Assembly (NCBI GenBank): GCA_002441265.1
Contig: DJVQ01000025.1
Location: 1,422 to 65,421 of the forward strand
Direction of reading: 5' to 3'
Origin: Syntrophaceae bacterium UBA6252
GTDB lineage: Bacteria; Desulfobacterota; Syntrophia; Syntrophales; UBA6807
DNA: 64,000 bases
In this document: positions 7,369 to 63,986 of the stretch, in pieces
How the letters are laid out: each line of letters opens with the position of its first letter
Numbering within the stretch: the stretch's first letter is position 1
Translations under genes and position numbers: made by a program
The notes under the pieces: model-generated
Told to the model about the DNA's origin: nothing
Database searches by the model: none
Seen by the model: the letters and a program-made list of their open reading frames with translations, nothing else

Positions 7369-7645
7369 CAGGAACGCACTCAAAGGAAAATTCCCGGCGT
7401 GTCTTCTCCGGTGGGCTTCGCGGGAAGCCCCGGCAACGCCGGGTTCCCTCTCTCTTACCACAATAAGCGGCCCGGGTCCATTCCGCCCGGGTTTCGCGTT
7501 CCATCCGGGGCTGAAGCCCCGGACTACATCTGAAATTCGCATGAGCCGGAGCCCATACCGGCCGGTACTTCTCTCATGTAGTCCGGCCCTTCAGGGCCGG
7601 CGGCACGGTCGATAGATGTTCCTTCCTGAAAACGACCACCGTCAA

Positions 7646-7829
7646 GGGGCGCGAAACGGTTTTGGAGGCGAATAAGCGCCTTTTCGCAACGGTTCCTTTC
7701 GAAGCGGAACGGCCGCAACACCGCTTGTCCGAGCCGGAAAAGCCCCATAGGGCGAATCCGCGGTGTTGCAGTGGAGCGAGAAAACTGGAACCGTCGAAAA
7801 GCGGTTCCTGAGCCGGAAAACCGTCCGCG
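7646..7829 (+). repeat. Long-hairpin unit A1
   Basis: Inner stem GCAACACCGC/GCGGTGTTGC. Middle stem around AACGGTTCC/GGAACCGT. Outer stem ACGGTTTT/AAAACCGT. Confidence 0.8.
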
Positions 7830-7950
7830 ACCCCGGGGGAACAGCCACATCAATCCGCTCGCCCTCGTCCCGACCGGGGCTGAAGCCCCGGATTCCATCT
7901 GAAGAGTCTTCTCATCCATCGGGATTCTATCCCAAGGAACCGCCGTCGAA

Positions 7951-8133
7951 GGGCGCGGAACAGTTTTGGAGGCGAATCAACCGTCTTTTCGTCACGGTTC
8001 CTTTCGAAGCGGCACGCCCGCAACACCGCCTGTCAGAGTCTGATGGCCCCATAGGACAAATCCGCGGTGTTGCAGTGGAGCGAGAAAATTGGAACCGTCG
8101 AAAAGCGGTTCCTGAGCCGGAAAACCGTCCGCG
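7951..8133 (+). repeat. Long-hairpin unit A2
   Basis: Same scaffold as A1, with a different apical segment. Confidence 0.8.
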
Positions 8134-8315
8134 CCCCCCGGGAAGCAGCCACATCAATCCGCTCGCCCCCGTCCCGACCGGAACCCGCCGTTTGAAAAAC
8201 GTGCTCTATCGACCCGTTACCGGTTCGTCACGGGTTTCGTTGTGAATTGTCCCGTTTTCTGTTATCCAGGGGGAAAATGCAGGAAGGGCGATAGCCTTTC
8301 AAGGGAAAGGAACCG

Positions 8316-12720: not shown

Positions 12721-13355
12721 CGGCGCCCCCTTTCCGGGAAATGGACCGCTCCCACCCGCTTCAGCGCGCAGACGACCTCGCACAACGGAAGGCCGATCAC
12801 GTTGGTGCAGGAACCGTGAATCTCTCCGACGAACACCGCTCCCATCCCCTGGACCGCGTATGCGCCCGCCTTGTCATAGGGTTCGGGGGTGCCCGCGTAC
12901 CATTCCAGTTCATCCTCCGGAATCTCCCGGAACATCACCACGGACTCCACGGCCTCGGAAACCGCCGGCGGCCCCTCGCCGCGGAGAAGGGAGAATCCGG
13001 TGATCACCTGATGACTCCTGCCGCTCAGTTTCCGGAGCATCTCCTTCGCCTCCCCGGCGTTCCGGGGTTTGCCGAGCACCTCCCCGTCGACCACGACCAC
13101 CGTGTCCGCCCCGAGGACCCAGGAGGCGGGATGCCGTGCGGCAGCCATGCGGCTTTTTTCGAGAGAGAGCCGGATTGCATGATTCCTCGGGGTTTCCCCG
13201 TTCAGGAAGGTTTCCGGCACATCGCTCGGCGCTACGGTGAAGCGAAGCCCGAGGCTCCCCAGAAGTTCTCTCCTTCTCGGGGACGCCGAGGCCAGGATGA
13301 ATGCGGGTAGGGACACGACAGAAATCCTTTCTTTACGGCTTCGGAAAAAGTTCAT
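12717..13355 (-). CDS. maf: Maf-like nucleoside triphosphate pyrophosphatase
   Basis: 212 aa with ILASASPRRRELL and GAYAVQG. Confidence 0.88.
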   Translation of the reverse strand: MNFFRSRKERISVVSLPAFILASASPRRRELLGSLGLRFTVAPSDVPETFLNGETPRNHAIRLSLEKSRMAAARHPASWVLGADTVVVVDGEVLGKPRNAGEAKEMLRKLSGRSHQVITGFSLLRGEGPPAVSEAVESVVMFREIPEDELEWYAGTPEPYDKAGAYAVQGMGAVFVGEIHGSCTNVIGLPLCEVVCALKRVGAVHFPERGRR

Positions 13356-13356
13356 A

Positions 13357-13436
13357 TGCTGCGTTGCCCTTCTTCTCTCCTCCCTGCGGCGTACCGAAAG
13401 TACGCCTCGGTCCTCGCGATTCGGGCGCCTTGCCTT
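13357..13436 (-). repeat. Dispersed ~80-nt GC-rich intergenic element, copy R1
   Basis: Its reverse complement aligns with 35588-35668, 54693-54768 and 63910-63986. Shared blocks are GCGCCCGAATC, the hairpin GGCGTAC-N5-GTACGCC, and CGCCGCAGGGAGGAG..GAAGGGCAACGC. Confidence 0.7.
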
Positions 13437-13508
13437 TGGAGCTTCTTCCTTTGCCGTTATTTCCCGACTTTCTTCAAATCCGTCTTTCCTGACGATCCCC
13501 TTCGGGAT

Positions 13509-14211: not shown

Positions 14212-14296
14212 AGAACCGATAAAGGCAAACTATCCGTAAGGGTAGGACGCAAAGCCATGGGTCCGCGGATGCGGATCGCCAGGCCGCCGAAGTTCT
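14212..14296 (+). promoter_or_regulatory. c-di-GMP-I (GEMM-I) riboswitch aptamer
   Basis: Reads AAAGGCAAAC-UAUCC-GUAA-GGGUA-GGACGCAAAGCC. The conserved GGCAAAC and GGACGCAAAGCC blocks flank a P2 hairpin with a GNRA loop, as in Vc2. P1 is AGAAC (14212-14216) paired with GUUCU (14292-14296). Confidence 0.7.
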
Positions 14297-21747: not shown

Positions 21748-22404
21748 TTGATCATGGGATTGGGCAAGGGAAGACGTTTTCAGTTCACCCTCGGGAAAGT
21801 GGGGTTCGTCTTCTTCCTTTTCGGCATCTCCGCCCTTCTCCTGCTTTCCTTTCTCTTCGGGATCCTTGTGGGCAGGAACATCGACACGTATCCCGAAAAG
21901 ATCGCCAAGGAAATCCCCGCGGCGGTGACGAAAAAGATCGCGGGAGCCCTCCAGGGGGAGAAGGAGCCGGACGCAGGGAAGGAAACGAAGCCCGCCGGGG
22001 AAGAAGGAAAGAAGGGGGAGGCGCCCTTTCAGTATCGGTATTACGAGACCCTGACGGAGAAGAAGGACACCCCGCCGGCGGCGGCGGAACAGCCCGCCCC
22101 GGCCCCGGCCCCGGCCCCGGCCCGGACGGAAGGACCAAAGGAAACCGTGAAGCCTCCGGCGGTCCGCTACACGGTCCAGGTGGCCTCTCTCCGTGAAAGG
22201 TCCGGCGCGGAAGAAGTCCGGAAGGACCTCGTCTCCCTCGGATTCCGTCCCGTCATGGATACGGTGGTGTTGAAGGGCCGAGGCACCTGGCACCGGATAC
22301 GCCTCACGGGATACGGAAGCTTCGAGGCGGCGAAGGAAGCGGCGGCGGCGGTGGAAAAGAAACTCCGCGGAACCCGCTGCATCATCCGAAAGGAAACATC
22401 CTAG
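21748..22404 (+). CDS. SPOR-domain membrane protein
   Basis: N-terminal TM helix, a Pro/Ala/Glu-rich linker, and a C-terminal SPOR-like domain (YTVQVASLRERSGAEEVRKDL...WHRIRLTGYGSFEAAKEA). The start may be ATG 21754. Confidence 0.75.
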   Translation: MIMGLGKGRRFQFTLGKVGFVFFLFGISALLLLSFLFGILVGRNIDTYPEKIAKEIPAAVTKKIAGALQGEKEPDAGKETKPAGEEGKKGEAPFQYRYYETLTEKKDTPPAAAEQPAPAPAPAPARTEGPKETVKPPAVRYTVQVASLRERSGAEEVRKDLVSLGFRPVMDTVVLKGRGTWHRIRLTGYGSFEAAKEAAAAVEKKLRGTRCIIRKETS

Positions 22405-27506: not shown

Positions 27507-27882
27507 AAAAAGGCCCCGCGGGACGGGGGCCGCGGGAAAAGCCGGCGAAGACCTGGCCGCCGCCTCCCTGGAAAGGGCGGGATACGACATCCTCTGCCGG
27601 AACTACCGCTGCCGCCACGGGGAACTGGACATCGTGGCCAGGGAGGGGAGGCATCTCGTTTTCGTCGAGGTGAAAAGCCGCCGTTCGCTCCGTTTCGGAG
27701 AACCCCACGAGGCGATCGACTCGAGAAAGCGGCGCCGGATGTCCCGGGCCGCTCTCCACTACCTGCAGCATCACGGGGGGACGGAACAGGACGCGCGCTT
27801 CGATGTTCTTTTCGTCCGATTCACCGCCGGCGGCGGAACGGAAATCCGCCTGATCCGGAACGCCTTCGAGGTCTGTCCGTGA
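27493..27882 (+). CDS. yraN: YraN-family (UPF0102) endonuclease-like protein
   Basis: 129 aa with [25 protein letters not shown]. Confidence 0.88.
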
Positions 27883-28721
27883 AAGGAACGCTCTTCATCG
27901 TCGCCACGCCCATCGGAAACCTGGAGGACATCACCCTCCGGGCCATCCGCGTTCTCCGGGAGGCGGGGCTCGTGGCGGCGGAGGACACCCGCCGCACGGC
28001 AAAGCTCTTTCAGGCCCACGGGATCCGGACGCCCCTCACCAGCCTCCATGACTGGAACGAACGGGAAAAAAGCGCCGCCATCATGGAAAAGCTCCTTGCC
28101 GGAATGAACGTGGCCTGCGTATCCGACGCGGGGACTCCCGGGATTTCCGATCCCGGATACGTCCTCGTGAAAACGGCCATCGAAAAAGGCATTCCCGTCG
28201 TTCCCGTGCCGGGGCCGTCGGCGATCATCACCGCCGTCAGCGTGTCGGGGCTTCCCATGGACCGGTTCGTCTTCTTCGGCTTTCTGCCGTCGAGGGCAAG
28301 CCAGCGCAGGAAATTCCTGGCGTCCCTCGCCGACGAGGAGAAAACCATGATTTTTCACGAATCCCCCCGCCGCCTGCGGGAGGCGCTGGAGGACCTCGGG
28401 GAGCTTCTCGGGGACCGGGAGATCGTCGTCGCCCGGGAACTGACGAAACTGCACGAGGAAATCCTGAGGGGGACGGTCTCGGAGGTGCGCGACCAGTTGA
28501 AGGACAATCCTCCCCGGGGGGAAATCACCCTTCTCGTTTCGGGCAGGCCGAAAAAATCCGCTCCGCCGGAGCCGGGAGACGCGTTGCGCGACCGGATCCT
28601 CGAACTCGCCGGGGAAGGCGGCGCATCGGTGCGGGACCTGGTTTCGCGCCTCACCGAAGAAACGGGACTCCCGCGGAGCATGATGTATCGGGAAGCCCTC
28701 CAGGTCCTGAAGAAGAAATAA
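27879..28721 (+). CDS. rsmI: 16S rRNA (cytidine1402-2'-O)-methyltransferase RsmI
   Basis: 280 aa with GTLFIVATPIGNLEDITLRA (tetrapyrrole-methylase fold). Confidence 0.92.
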   Translation: MKGTLFIVATPIGNLEDITLRAIRVLREAGLVAAEDTRRTAKLFQAHGIRTPLTSLHDWNEREKSAAIMEKLLAGMNVACVSDAGTPGISDPGYVLVKTAIEKGIPVVPVPGPSAIITAVSVSGLPMDRFVFFGFLPSRASQRRKFLASLADEEKTMIFHESPRRLREALEDLGELLGDREIVVARELTKLHEEILRGTVSEVRDQLKDNPPRGEITLLVSGRPKKSAPPEPGDALRDRILELAGEGGASVRDLVSRLTEETGLPRSMMYREALQVLKKK

Positions 28722-28926
28722 AACGTCATCCTTCCGGTACGTCCCGCCCCCCGCAGAACCGCACGTCAGGCAAATTTCCTTCGTTCCAACTGTCTCATGT
28801 AGCCCGGCCCTTCAAGGCCGGCGGCCTTTGACGCACCGTTGCCCGCAACGCCGGGGCTGAAGCCCCGGACTACATTTGAAGATTCTTATCATCCATCGGG
28901 ATTTTACCGCAGACAACCGCCATAGA

Positions 28927-29109
28927 GGGGCGCGGGACGGTTTTGAGGGCGAATAATCGCTTTTTCGCTAACGGTTCCTTTCGAAGCGAAACGCCCGCAA
29001 CACCGCTTGTACCGGCACGGAGACCCAAAGGCCGAATCCGCGGTGTTGCAGTGGAGCGAGAAAATTGGAACCGTCGAAAAGCGGTTCCTGAGCCGGAAAA
29101 CCGTCCGCG
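28927..29109 (+). repeat. Long-hairpin unit B1
   Basis: Same scaffold as A1/A2. The apical segment is identical to B2. Confidence 0.85.
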
Positions 29110-29309
29110 GCCCCCGGGAACCGCCACATCAACCCAACGTCCCTCGTTCCAACCGGGGCTGAAGCCCCGGACTACGTTAAAAACCCCATCGCCCCCCGGA
29201 ACCGCCACATCAACCCGACGGCCCTCGTCCCGACCGGGGCTGAAGCCCCGGACTACGTTTGAAGGTTCTTATCATCTCCCAGAATTTTACAGCGGGAAAT
29301 CGCCGTCGA

Positions 29310-29492
29310 GGGGCGCGGGACGGTTTTGGAGGCGAATCAACCGCCTTTTCGTCACGGTTCCTTTCGAAGCGAAACGCCCGCAACACCGCTTGTACCGGCA
29401 CGGAGACCCAAAGGCCGAATCCGCGGTGTTGCAGTGGAGCGAGAAAATTGGAACCGTCGAAAAGCGGTTCCTGAGCCGGAAAACCGTCCGCG
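29310..29492 (+). repeat. Long-hairpin unit B2
   Basis: Best-paired copy. Outer stem GCGGGACGGTTTT/AAAACCGTCCGC; middle stem AACCGCCTTTTCGTCACGGTTCC/GGAACCGTCGAAAAGCGGTT; inner stem GCAACACCGC/GCGGTGTTGC. Confidence 0.85.
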
Positions 29493-29611
29493 TCCCCCGG
29501 GAACAGCCGCATCAACCCGACGGCCCTCGTCCCGACCGGGGCTGAAGCCCCGGACTACGTTTGAAGGTTCTTATCATCTCCCAGAATTTTACAGCGGGAA
29601 ATCGCCGTCGA

Positions 29612-29656
29612 GGGGCGCGCGACGGTTTTGGAGGCAAATCAACCGCCTTTTCGTCA
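29612..29656 (+). repeat. Truncated unit B3 (5' arm only)
   Basis: GGGGCGCGCGACGGTTTTGGAGGCAAATCAACCGCCTTTTCGTCA, ending on the stop codon (29654-29656) of the minus-strand small ORF. Confidence 0.8.
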
Positions 29657-29887
29657 GCCTTTTTCCAGGGCCCGTTCCATCTCCTCCGCCAGGGCCCCGT
29701 AGGTCGATTGCATCAGGGTTTCCAGGGTTTCCGTCTGTTTCCTCATGGGAAGCCACTGGAGGACGTGCTCCTGGTCCCGCCAGATCCGATCCCGGGCCTC
29801 GTCGGCCCGCTGCTGCACCTCCGCCGCCATGTCCCTGCCGAACCGCTCCTCGTATTTCCGGATGATCTCGAGATACTTTTCCTTCAT
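29654..29887 (-). CDS. Small helical hypothetical protein (77 aa, or 87 aa if it starts at 29917)
   Basis: C-terminal part of track ORF 29654..30268: MKEKYLEIIRKYEERFGRDMAAEVQQRADEARDRI... Lies directly downstream of gspE on the same strand. The purine-rich stretch GGCGGGGAG lies upstream of ATG 29887. Confidence 0.5.
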   Translation of the reverse strand: MKEKYLEIIRKYEERFGRDMAAEVQQRADEARDRIWRDQEHVLQWLPMRKQTETLETLMQSTYGALAEEMERALEKG

Positions 29888-35524: not shown

Positions 35525-35587
35525 ATCCTCAGGAACCCGGCAAAGCGTTCAATGTCCTCTCCGGACGGCCAAGTAAAAAGCATCGCA

Positions 35588-35668
35588 GGCAAGGCGCCCG
35601 AATCCCGGCGACCGGGGCGTCCTTCCCCGTGCGCCGCAGGGAGGAGAAGTCAAGGGCGACGCGGCATA
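35588..35668 (+). repeat. Dispersed ~80-nt element, copy R3
   Basis: GGCAAGGCGCCCGAATCCCGGCGACCGGGGCGTCCTTCCCCGTGCGCCGCAGGGAGGAGAAGTCAAGGGCGACGCGGCA, in the gspM-gspN gap. Confidence 0.7.
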
Positions 35669-35676
35669 CGGTCTTG

Positions 35677-36252
35677 TTACGAAGCCGTCCCCGGCAGGCG
35701 ATAGGTCACCACCTGAACCAGCACCGCCAGTTCGCCCGATTCCCTTTTGCCCTCCCGGATGGAAATGCGGCGGACCCGGACCAGCCGGTCCCCGTCCTCC
35801 AGGTAAAACAGGAATTCGGCAAGCTTTTCCAGGGATACCCCCTCGACCCTCATTTCCACGGTGGATTCCTCGTAGCCGGACCCCTCCGCATCCATCGCCT
35901 CGGAGGGCTTCATGTACTGGATCCTGTCCTTGATTCCCGCCCTGCCGGCGACGCTCTCGAGATAGGAAAACAGGGTGAATCCCCGCTCCCTGGCGTCGAG
36001 CGCCTTTCGAACGACCGCCTCTCGAGCCCGGAGGGCCTCGAATTCCTTCCGGAGTCCCCGCATTTCCCTCAGCGTCTCCTCGTAACGCCGGATGGAACGT
36101 TCCGTGTTTTCCCGCTTTTCCATAAGCGGAAAAACGATTCCCTGAAAAACGAGGAAAAGGACCAGAAGGGTGCCGCCGATCCCCACGGCCAGGGTTTCCC
36201 GCCGGGACATCCTCGGCCATTTTTTTAAAAGCCGGCGCAGCCAGTTTTCCAT
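35677..36252 (-). CDS. gspM: Type II secretion protein GspM-like
   Basis: MENWLRRLLKKWPRMSRRETLAVGIGGTLLVLFLVF, a TM helix, then a periplasmic domain. Alternative starts are ATG 36291 and GTG 36309 (the latter overlaps the gspL stop by 4 nt). Confidence 0.7.
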   Translation of the reverse strand: MENWLRRLLKKWPRMSRRETLAVGIGGTLLVLFLVFQGIVFPLMEKRENTERSIRRYEETLREMRGLRKEFEALRAREAVVRKALDARERGFTLFSYLESVAGRAGIKDRIQYMKPSEAMDAEGSGYEESTVEMRVEGVSLEKLAEFLFYLEDGDRLVRVRRISIREGKRESGELAVLVQVVTYRLPGTAS

Positions 36253-49311: not shown

Positions 49312-49517
49312 ATCGCTGCGCTCCTTTCTTTGGATTTGAGCTGTCTCCTTTCCAAACACGGGAGGCGCAGCCGTTTCCGGCGACACCCAATGTCCATTCT
49401 TCATGGAGAAAAATTCTCTTTAGAAGTAATGGATCGGAGAGGTTATACTGGTTGCCGACCTCTGTGAAAGAACAAACAACAGAAAGCCCAAAGAATGTGG
49501 GCCTTCAGAATCGCTTA

Positions 49518-63809: not shown

Positions 63810-63909
63810 GAATTCGAATCCCCCTTAAGGTGGAAGCGTTGGAATCGATGAAGTCAAGAAAGCCTGAACAACGCCTGTCCGGACAGCGACGGGAAAAGCC
63901 CCGGGGGCA

Positions 63910-63986
63910 CTGCGCCCGGATCCCGGAAACCGGCGCGCGCTTCCGCTGCGCCGCAGGGACGAGGGATGAAGGGCGACGCGGCAAGG
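63910..63986 (+). repeat. Dispersed ~80-nt element, copy R4
   Basis: CTGCGCCCGGATCCCGGAAACCGGCGCGCGCTTCCGCTGCGCCGCAGGGACGAGGGATGAAGGGCGACGCGGCAAGG, upstream of pheT. Confidence 0.65.

Follow-up and report, generated by a model that had tools for sequence, protein, structure and literature searches.

The question raised by this locus is why a long repeated unit fills the space between an rsmI-like methyltransferase gene and a small minus-strand ORF of 77 aa, and why its last copy is cut exactly at the stop codon of that ORF. The locus, called array B here, lies in a stretch of 64,000 nt (the window) that was analyzed as a whole. On balance, array B is considered rather likely to be made up of head-to-tail copies of a non-autonomous, lineage-specific repeat that belongs to a Syntrophales clade, with the unit anatomy, site history and Y1/HUH route of mobilization set out below.

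Array B is bounded on the left by the rsmI-like gene (27879..28721, plus strand; a PF00590 gene call) and on the right by the 77-aa ORF (29654..29887, minus strand), which is located downstream of gspE, is conserved in three protein clusters and has no Pfam family. Adjacent to rsmI, a degenerate, 5'-truncated unit (28722..28798, plus strand) was recognized by eye against the full units as a remnant of the 3' basal stem together with a tail. There follow a type-C GTAG-tagged hairpin (28799..28821, plus strand; GTAGC CCGGCCC..GGCCGG), inverted with respect to the next hairpin, and that next hairpin itself, which is of type G and whose minus strand reads GTAG-T-CCGGGGCTTCAGCCCCGG (28851..28873, minus strand). 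The first full unit continues with the B1 linker (28874..28927, plus strand; defined by alignment), core B1, an imperfect palindrome of ca. 190 nt with a rod-like fold (28928..29114, plus strand; 204 bits in the sense and 25 in the antisense direction in nhmmer), and the B1 tail (29115..29152, plus strand; from the unit alignment), which runs into a type-G hairpin (29153..29175, minus strand). A “short-form” spacer (29176..29233, plus strand) that features a 3' basal stem remnant and a tail without a core then makes up an 81-nt module with the type-G hairpin after it (29234..29256, minus strand). The second full unit comprises the B2 linker (29257..29309, plus strand), which resembles that of B3 in the unit comparison, core B2 (29310..29497, plus strand; nhmmer and unit comparison), which is a mosaic with a B3-like 5' arm and a remainder equal to B1, the B2 tail (29498..29535, plus strand) and a type-G hairpin (29536..29558, minus strand). 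The third unit, B3, consists of a linker (29559..29611, plus strand) and the first 45 nt of a core, i.e. the 5' arm (29612..29656, plus strand; nhmmer profile positions 1-45), and its last three letters, TCA (29654-29656), double as the stop codon of the 77-aa ORF. A second cluster of the same family, array A (7505..8170, plus strand), has two full units and occupies the divergent ruvX-selB intergenic region.

An earlier note on this DNA, made by a reader of the letters alone, had described much of this layout, and most of its measurements stood. The tagged hairpins that it had placed at 28851, 29153, 29234 and 29536 (motif CCGGGGCTGAAGCCCCGG followed by ACTAC) were recovered with the 23-mer CCGGGGCTGAAGCCCCGGACTAC, which matched at these four sites and at 7505 and 7874 in array A (two mismatches), that is, six matches compared to a chance expectation of 0.01. 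The distances from hairpin to hairpin were 302, 81 and 302 nt; of the two periods formerly given, 302 nt was right, and the “301” is actually 302. Tandem Repeats Finder reported a period of 383 (302+81) with 1.9 copies for array B and a period of 81 with 1.9 copies at 29110-29259, in keeping with the duplicated tail-plus-hairpin module that had been remarked upon at 29176-29256. B1 and B2 had been said to have the same 3' arm and apical segment and to differ in their 5' arms and linkers; the counts were 0 differing positions over 28971-29109 (139 positions) and 26 within 28874-28970. The third copy, reported to end on the TCA stop codon, indeed matched B2 at 97% identity across 29494-29656, and the homology then ceased at the TCA.

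One unit of the family consists of a GTAG-tagged hairpin, a linker of ca. 55 nt, a core of ca. 190 nt and a tail of ca. 40 nt that leads into the next hairpin. The hairpin is a GC-rich segment of 18 nt followed by ACTAC, and its minus strand thus reads GTAG-T-hairpin, an arrangement that is the signature of GTAG-tagged REPs (PMC3733652). Two types of hairpin were distinguished, G (CCGGGGC..GCCCCGG) and C (CCGGCCC..GGGCCGG); both were seen in both orientations, and the changes between their stems compensate one another such that pairing is preserved. The core starts with GGGGCGCGGGACGGTTTT, ends with AAAACCGTCCGCGNCCCC and is asymmetric with respect to its own profile (ca. 200 bits sense, ca. 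25 bits antisense). In nearly every copy, a hairpin was located 49-59 nt past the core. The 81-nt short form, in which the hairpin is joined to what is left of the core's 3' basal stem and then to a tail, is a second unit type: it was found with its own diagnostic bases at four other loci (L027, L015, L050 and L052; loci are numbered with the prefix L), and 29176-29256 is one instance of it.

The family amounted to about 40 copies, found on metagenome contigs and in one Syntrophales MAG. A loop-anchored pattern returned 26 metagenome loci with ca. 30 copies, including x2 and x3 arrays that run head-to-tail with periods of 271-317 nt. Further copies were present in L042-44 and L050-52, and in one metagenome the copies were distributed over nine large contigs. 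In the species-representative collection, the sole genome match was the Syntrophales MAG L009, which has one core, devoid of hairpins, between convergent genes; in this other species, the core is kept as a module of its own, and its flanks differ. The nearest named sequences to the RuvX of the window were also Syntrophales MAG proteins. At 4640-5000 of L009 (the relative Syntrophales bin292), a direct repeat of ca. 50 nt (GGGCCTGACG...GAAGATGAAGG) was noted on both sides of the core, and a strong bidirectional terminator-like hairpin follows the core. A profile search of all fetched DNA yielded no further full-length diverged copies, and the method by which copies were found is therefore not the sole reason for the strong 3'-arm conservation. 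L050 and L051 were considered as divergent copies and rejected, as their apparent divergence consisted of homopolymer indels only. A protein search for distant copies that used the spurious ORFs of the repeat returned close relatives only, and neither BLAST against plasmids and phages nor a pattern scan of viral contigs gave a match to the repeat. Within 5 kb on either side of the copies, the only protein family that recurred across loci was made up of spurious ORFs from the repeat itself; the other ORFs common between loci reflected the synteny of orthologous loci.

All copies were intergenic; the genes around them were convergent, divergent or in tandem, and the copies pointed either way. 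The earlier note had placed both arrays at the boundaries of highly conserved operons; such boundaries are not marked specifically, as copies were found beside many unrelated genes and in all types of context. Throughout the ca. 300 kb examined, every genuine type-G or type-C hairpin lay within 400 nt of a core, and GTAG-type hairpins in the 64-kb window were confined to arrays A and B. Because the hairpins are all near cores, hairpin and core are regarded as one composite element, not as two independent families. Seven GTAG-plus-hairpin sites were counted in the window, and the GTAG/CTAC tag was present on 44 of the 74 REP-like hairpins in the loci. Unrelated features of the window were a molybdenum/tungsten cofactor riboswitch (49329-49451, minus strand; 70.9 bits in Rfam), a c-di-GMP-I-GGC riboswitch aptamer (14215-14292, plus strand; 68.7 bits in Rfam) and a perfect hexamer repeat, GCCCCG x4.7, at 22096-22123 (Tandem Repeats Finder).

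The history of the site was read from an allelic series composed of contigs from the three homologue clusters of the 77-aa ORF. In the empty allele (L036/L037, 78% protein identity), the convergent genes rsmI and the small ORF share an overlap of 14 nt, and neither intergenic DNA nor a core separates them. In L042 (91% identity), a spacer of 465 nt contains one full unit and a truncated unit in the order 5'-truncated unit, type-C hairpin, full core, tail, type-G hairpin, linker and 5' arm, with the arm ending ..TTTTCT|TCA at the stop codon. The window and L019 have two full units and the same truncated unit, in spacers of 932 and 929 nt, respectively. The right junction was identical in every occupied allele (L006-8, L019, L042 and the window), which argues that it was made by a single insertion. 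Judged from these aligned junctions, the truncated copy is an old, fixed structure and not a recent one. Copy number varies between relatives (0, 1+ and 2+ units), as the earlier note had predicted for a dynamic element; the junction of the truncated copy is common to all occupied alleles.

Both genes at the site end differently in the occupied and the empty alleles. The C-terminus of RsmI reads KKK* in the window versus KKKKDLTRS* in L036 and is thus 5 aa shorter, and the gene has a new TAA located 5 codons earlier than the stop of the empty allele; on this side, homology with the empty allele ends at ca. 28725. There are two readings of the left border of the insert: either it retains old terminal codons of the ORF as a relic, or a 5'-truncated unit starts there. 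The pentamer CGTCA, which is found at both flanks in the window, was tried as a target-site duplication of the whole insert and rejected, as the left copy is missing in L019 and L042. In L036, gspE and the small ORF are separated by a peptidase S8 gene (616-2550), which the window lacks at that place. The sequence of events read from these alleles begins with rsmI and the 77-aa ORF convergent and overlapping. One insertion then put repeat DNA directly after the stop codon of the ORF, and RsmI gained its earlier stop. That the element was inserted against the 3' end of the small gene, one of the possibilities in the earlier note, is supported by the empty L036/L037 and the occupied L042. An insertion at any other point of the overlap would be expected to disrupt the coding sequence of one gene or both; that the last copy is cut exactly at the stop codon is therefore most likely the outcome of selection, together with a 3-nt overlap, TCA.

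The other possibility in that note was that the terminus of the gene derives from the repeat, i.e. that the element provided the 77-aa ORF with its stop codon and its last residues. This is unlikely, though a real contender. The match to a full unit ends with the TGA triplet (..TTTTCGTCA|CGG in B2 versus ..TTTTCGTCA|GCC), and the C-terminus of the small ORF is unlike that of the empty allele and one residue shorter (..ALEKG* or ..LENG* in occupied alleles versus ..ALSKNA* in the empty one). However, the coding homology with the empty allele continues to the penultimate codon, the stop is no more than one codon away from its original place, and the 3 nt common at the junction could easily be microhomology. 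Because the stop has been displaced by one codon at most, the TCA is best read as a 3-nt overlap of repeat and target at the junction, and a repeat-derived terminus is not needed.

With insertion against an existing stop codon as the preferred history, the nature of the inserted unit was considered. It is improbable, but worth weighing, that the ~190-nt core is a multi-copy structured ncRNA gene, or acts in a sequence-specific manner as single-stranded DNA (e.g. as the guide or bridge partner of a recombinase), such that the hairpins would be processing or stabilizing elements and the arrays tandem gene copies. The predicted fold of one unit is very stable, rod-like or four-way (-141 kcal/mol, z = -5.3); the internal loops and the 3' arm are almost without variation between copies; and the core remains discrete in the second species (L009) despite flanks that differ, its basal and central stems showing changes that compensate one another. 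Pairs with a change in both partners numbered 7, a count that 2 of 500 shuffles reached; the shuffles gave 3.9. On the other hand, shuffled controls scored equally in covariation and had an equal percentage of paired cells, and departures from pairing were symmetric with respect to strand (G-U versus A-C: 81 versus 106 cells, and 17 versus 19 polymorphic pairs). Rfam provided no family match at gathering thresholds or at E<=10; the chance matches below threshold were to the small hairpin only. No sigma-70-like promoter was found in the scan, inspection by eye together with scanning disclosed neither sigma-54 nor sigma-70 promoters in the linker or core, and the linkers upstream of the core vary between subfamilies. 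The orientation of the core with respect to neighboring genes was unconstrained; in tandem-gene contexts, it was antisense in three of four. As a whole, this does not fit a structured ncRNA family, for which supporting covariation, a strand-specific signature and a promoter and terminator of its own would be expected. Taken together, the absence of an Rfam match and of a promoter, the variable linkers, the free orientation, the control-level covariation and the strand symmetry favor a selfish element that acts at the DNA level, and this is probably what the repeat is.

Other identities for the core were tried and rejected. A coding gene was dismissed because of non-triplet indels between copies, despite a long plus-strand ORF through the 3' arm and tail; for an integron attC site, the R'/R'' consensus (GTTRRRY / RYYYAAC) is missing from the core ends; and no resemblance to domain V of a group II intron was seen by eye. 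The strong conservation of the core between copies and between two species, especially in the 3' arm, could indicate a function beyond selfish spread. A side effect of the core for the host may be transcription termination or insulation: the minus strand of each core has a hairpin followed by a T-tract, and such a structure could terminate the gsp operon.

As to how a probably selfish element came to form an array, core B2 is the informative copy. Up to 29354 it is B3-like, with 5 mismatches over 163 nt; from there on, it does not differ from B1 (0 mismatches over 139 nt). The array doubled its full units, from one to two, through a tandem duplication that rebuilt a full core, B2, from the 5' arm of the truncated copy and the remainder of B1. 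Array B additionally acquired the 81-nt short form, and, once a repeat is inserted, recombination between units may alter copy number and even orientation. L019 has no 81-nt module and has a different apical segment, and a 165-nt member of a second repeat family, Y, is nested in one of its cores. Family Y (ca. 125-165 nt) has inverted ends of ca. 25 nt (CGGCTTCGTAAAAAGCCCATATGC.. / ..GCCTATGGAGCTTTTTACTTTGCCG) and was observed in many fetched loci; its copies include 13336-13457 (plus strand), 35561-35687 (minus strand) and 63879-63983 (minus strand) in the window and 6513-6678 in L019. At the site of array A, the orthologous ruvX-selB spacer of L027 (3400-3900) has one core in the opposite orientation and a short form, compared to two tandem cores in the window, and in a more distant relative the spacer measures 304 nt and contains no core. 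L045 was considered as an empty site for array A and rejected, as its ruvX side was too diverged to place the borders.

The point at which B2 switches and the point at which B3 is truncated agree within 1-2 nt (28971 / 29354 / 29656; TCA|CGG), a coincidence that is not predicted by plain unequal crossing-over. The rsmI-side border of the insert starts ACGGCGTTCCT in L019 and ACGGCGTACCT in L042 and resembles the sequence just past TCA|CGG. The likeness among switch, truncation and border is either a coincidence or a hint of a specific joining site. A further proposal, regarded as highly doubtful, is that the core functions as a single strand of RNA or DNA and specifies the site of its own joining, TCA|CGG in the 5' arm; the end of array B and the B2 switch, both at this position, and the CGG..TTCCT-like start of the rsmI-side border would fit. 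Were it true, arrays would represent integral numbers of circularly permuted units, and a novel recombinase or HUH enzyme would be expected.

An artefact of short-read metagenome assembly, in the array or its copy number, is exceedingly improbable as the explanation: the DNA of the window does belong to a metagenome-assembled genome, short-read contigs do stop inside the repeats (three at 157 nt after rsmI and three at 51-82 nt after the small ORF), and copy number does differ at another site of the family (one core in L021 versus two cores plus short forms in L050), but both outer junctions were reproduced base for base in independent samples, L006, L007 and L008 (three other samples) have the identical junction of gene and repeat, L019 (a close relative, assembled independently) likewise has two full units followed by a truncated one, with its own substitutions, nested insertion and apical segment, and B1, B2 and B3 differ at many positions, as an artefact of collapse or expansion would not yield. 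Array B is real; its interior copy number is less certain.

Mobilization of such a non-autonomous repeat is most likely of the Y1/HUH type, by analogy, given the likeness of the tagged hairpins to REPs or IS200/IS605-type ends. A Y1/HUH (RAYT-like) enzyme would act in trans on single-stranded DNA. A regular-expression search for Y1/RAYT motifs over ca. 300 kb of fetched loci gave no match, and no transposase of any kind was found there. By eye, neither a target-site duplication nor a clear target motif emerged at the site-B junctions, which overlap by at most 3 nt (TCA), and no direct repeat flanks the cores; one empty site, L036, aligned well enough for this comparison, too few to define a target.

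GTAG-tagged REP elements and REP clusters, or BIMEs, were reportedly studied by Nunvar in 2010 and by Bertels and Rainey in 2011. Some families of GTAG-tagged REPs are regularly tied to longer palindromes, and REP clusters may be reiterated together with flanking DNA (Di Nocera 2013, PMC3733652). The array hairpins share with these elements (a REP being a GC-rich palindrome of 20-40 nt with GTAG at one end) their short, GC-rich palindromes with a GTAG tag at the 5' foot, their two stem variants that retain pairing, and their extragenic location. Occasional inverted pairs, as in BIMEs, occur at 28799/28851 and 7505/7578, and, as in REP clusters, units are reiterated with adjoining DNA and a hairpin is tied to a longer palindrome. 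There are also differences. The hairpins here are mostly head-to-tail with fixed spacings of 81 or 302 nt, an arrangement that is rare among classical REPs (PMC3733652), and the regular alternation of a BIME was not seen, inverted pairs being present only at array edges. In the ca. 300 kb and the 64-kb window, hairpins were never found away from a 190-nt core or a short form, in contrast to REPs scattered at high copy independently of other repeats; there is ca. one site per 30-90 kb, compared to hundreds of scattered singletons; and no RAYT gene was found in the fetched loci.

The core also invites comparison with MITE-like palindromic repeats such as ERIC/IRU, Correia/NEMIS, RUP and BOX. Like these, it is an intergenic imperfect palindrome of 100-300 nt with terminal inverted repeats (the core ends given above), is dispersed, multi-copy and lineage-restricted, would form a long hairpin if transcribed, and shows polymorphism of empty versus occupied sites. 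Unlike these, it has no direct repeat or target-site duplication flanking its copies, no related full-length IS was found within 5 kb on either side, a tagged hairpin accompanies nearly every copy, and it forms head-to-tail arrays in which units share hairpins. PATEs derived from IS200/IS605 resemble the element in the direct hairpins on both sides of a unit, the tetranucleotide 5' of the hairpin foot, and the lack of inverted ends at the outer borders and of target duplication; they differ in that, here, no cognate TnpA or TnpB was found, the one aligned empty site defined no target tetranucleotide, and adjacent units share one hairpin. Tn3-type ends (TIME) were rejected: the core begins GGGG, but no 5-bp duplication was found. 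Because its hairpins are not dispersed alone and do not alternate, and no target-site duplication was seen, the element is best filed outside REP, BIME and MITE in the strict sense, as a variant within that general kind.

For genome analysis, short-read assemblies of this lineage are interrupted at these repeats, and copy numbers in its MAGs are to be regarded as uncertain. The finding also adds a Syntrophales repeat family whose tagged hairpin, of REP type, is obligatorily linked to a long palindrome and whose units run head-to-tail, which is unusual among REPs; it is a test case for how Y1-type enzymes, or whatever mobilizes it, process composite substrates. The alleles at rsmI provide a natural series, from empty to one unit to two units plus modules, of repeats colonizing a site with no spare DNA, where the insertion re-terminated both genes and later expanded to an array.
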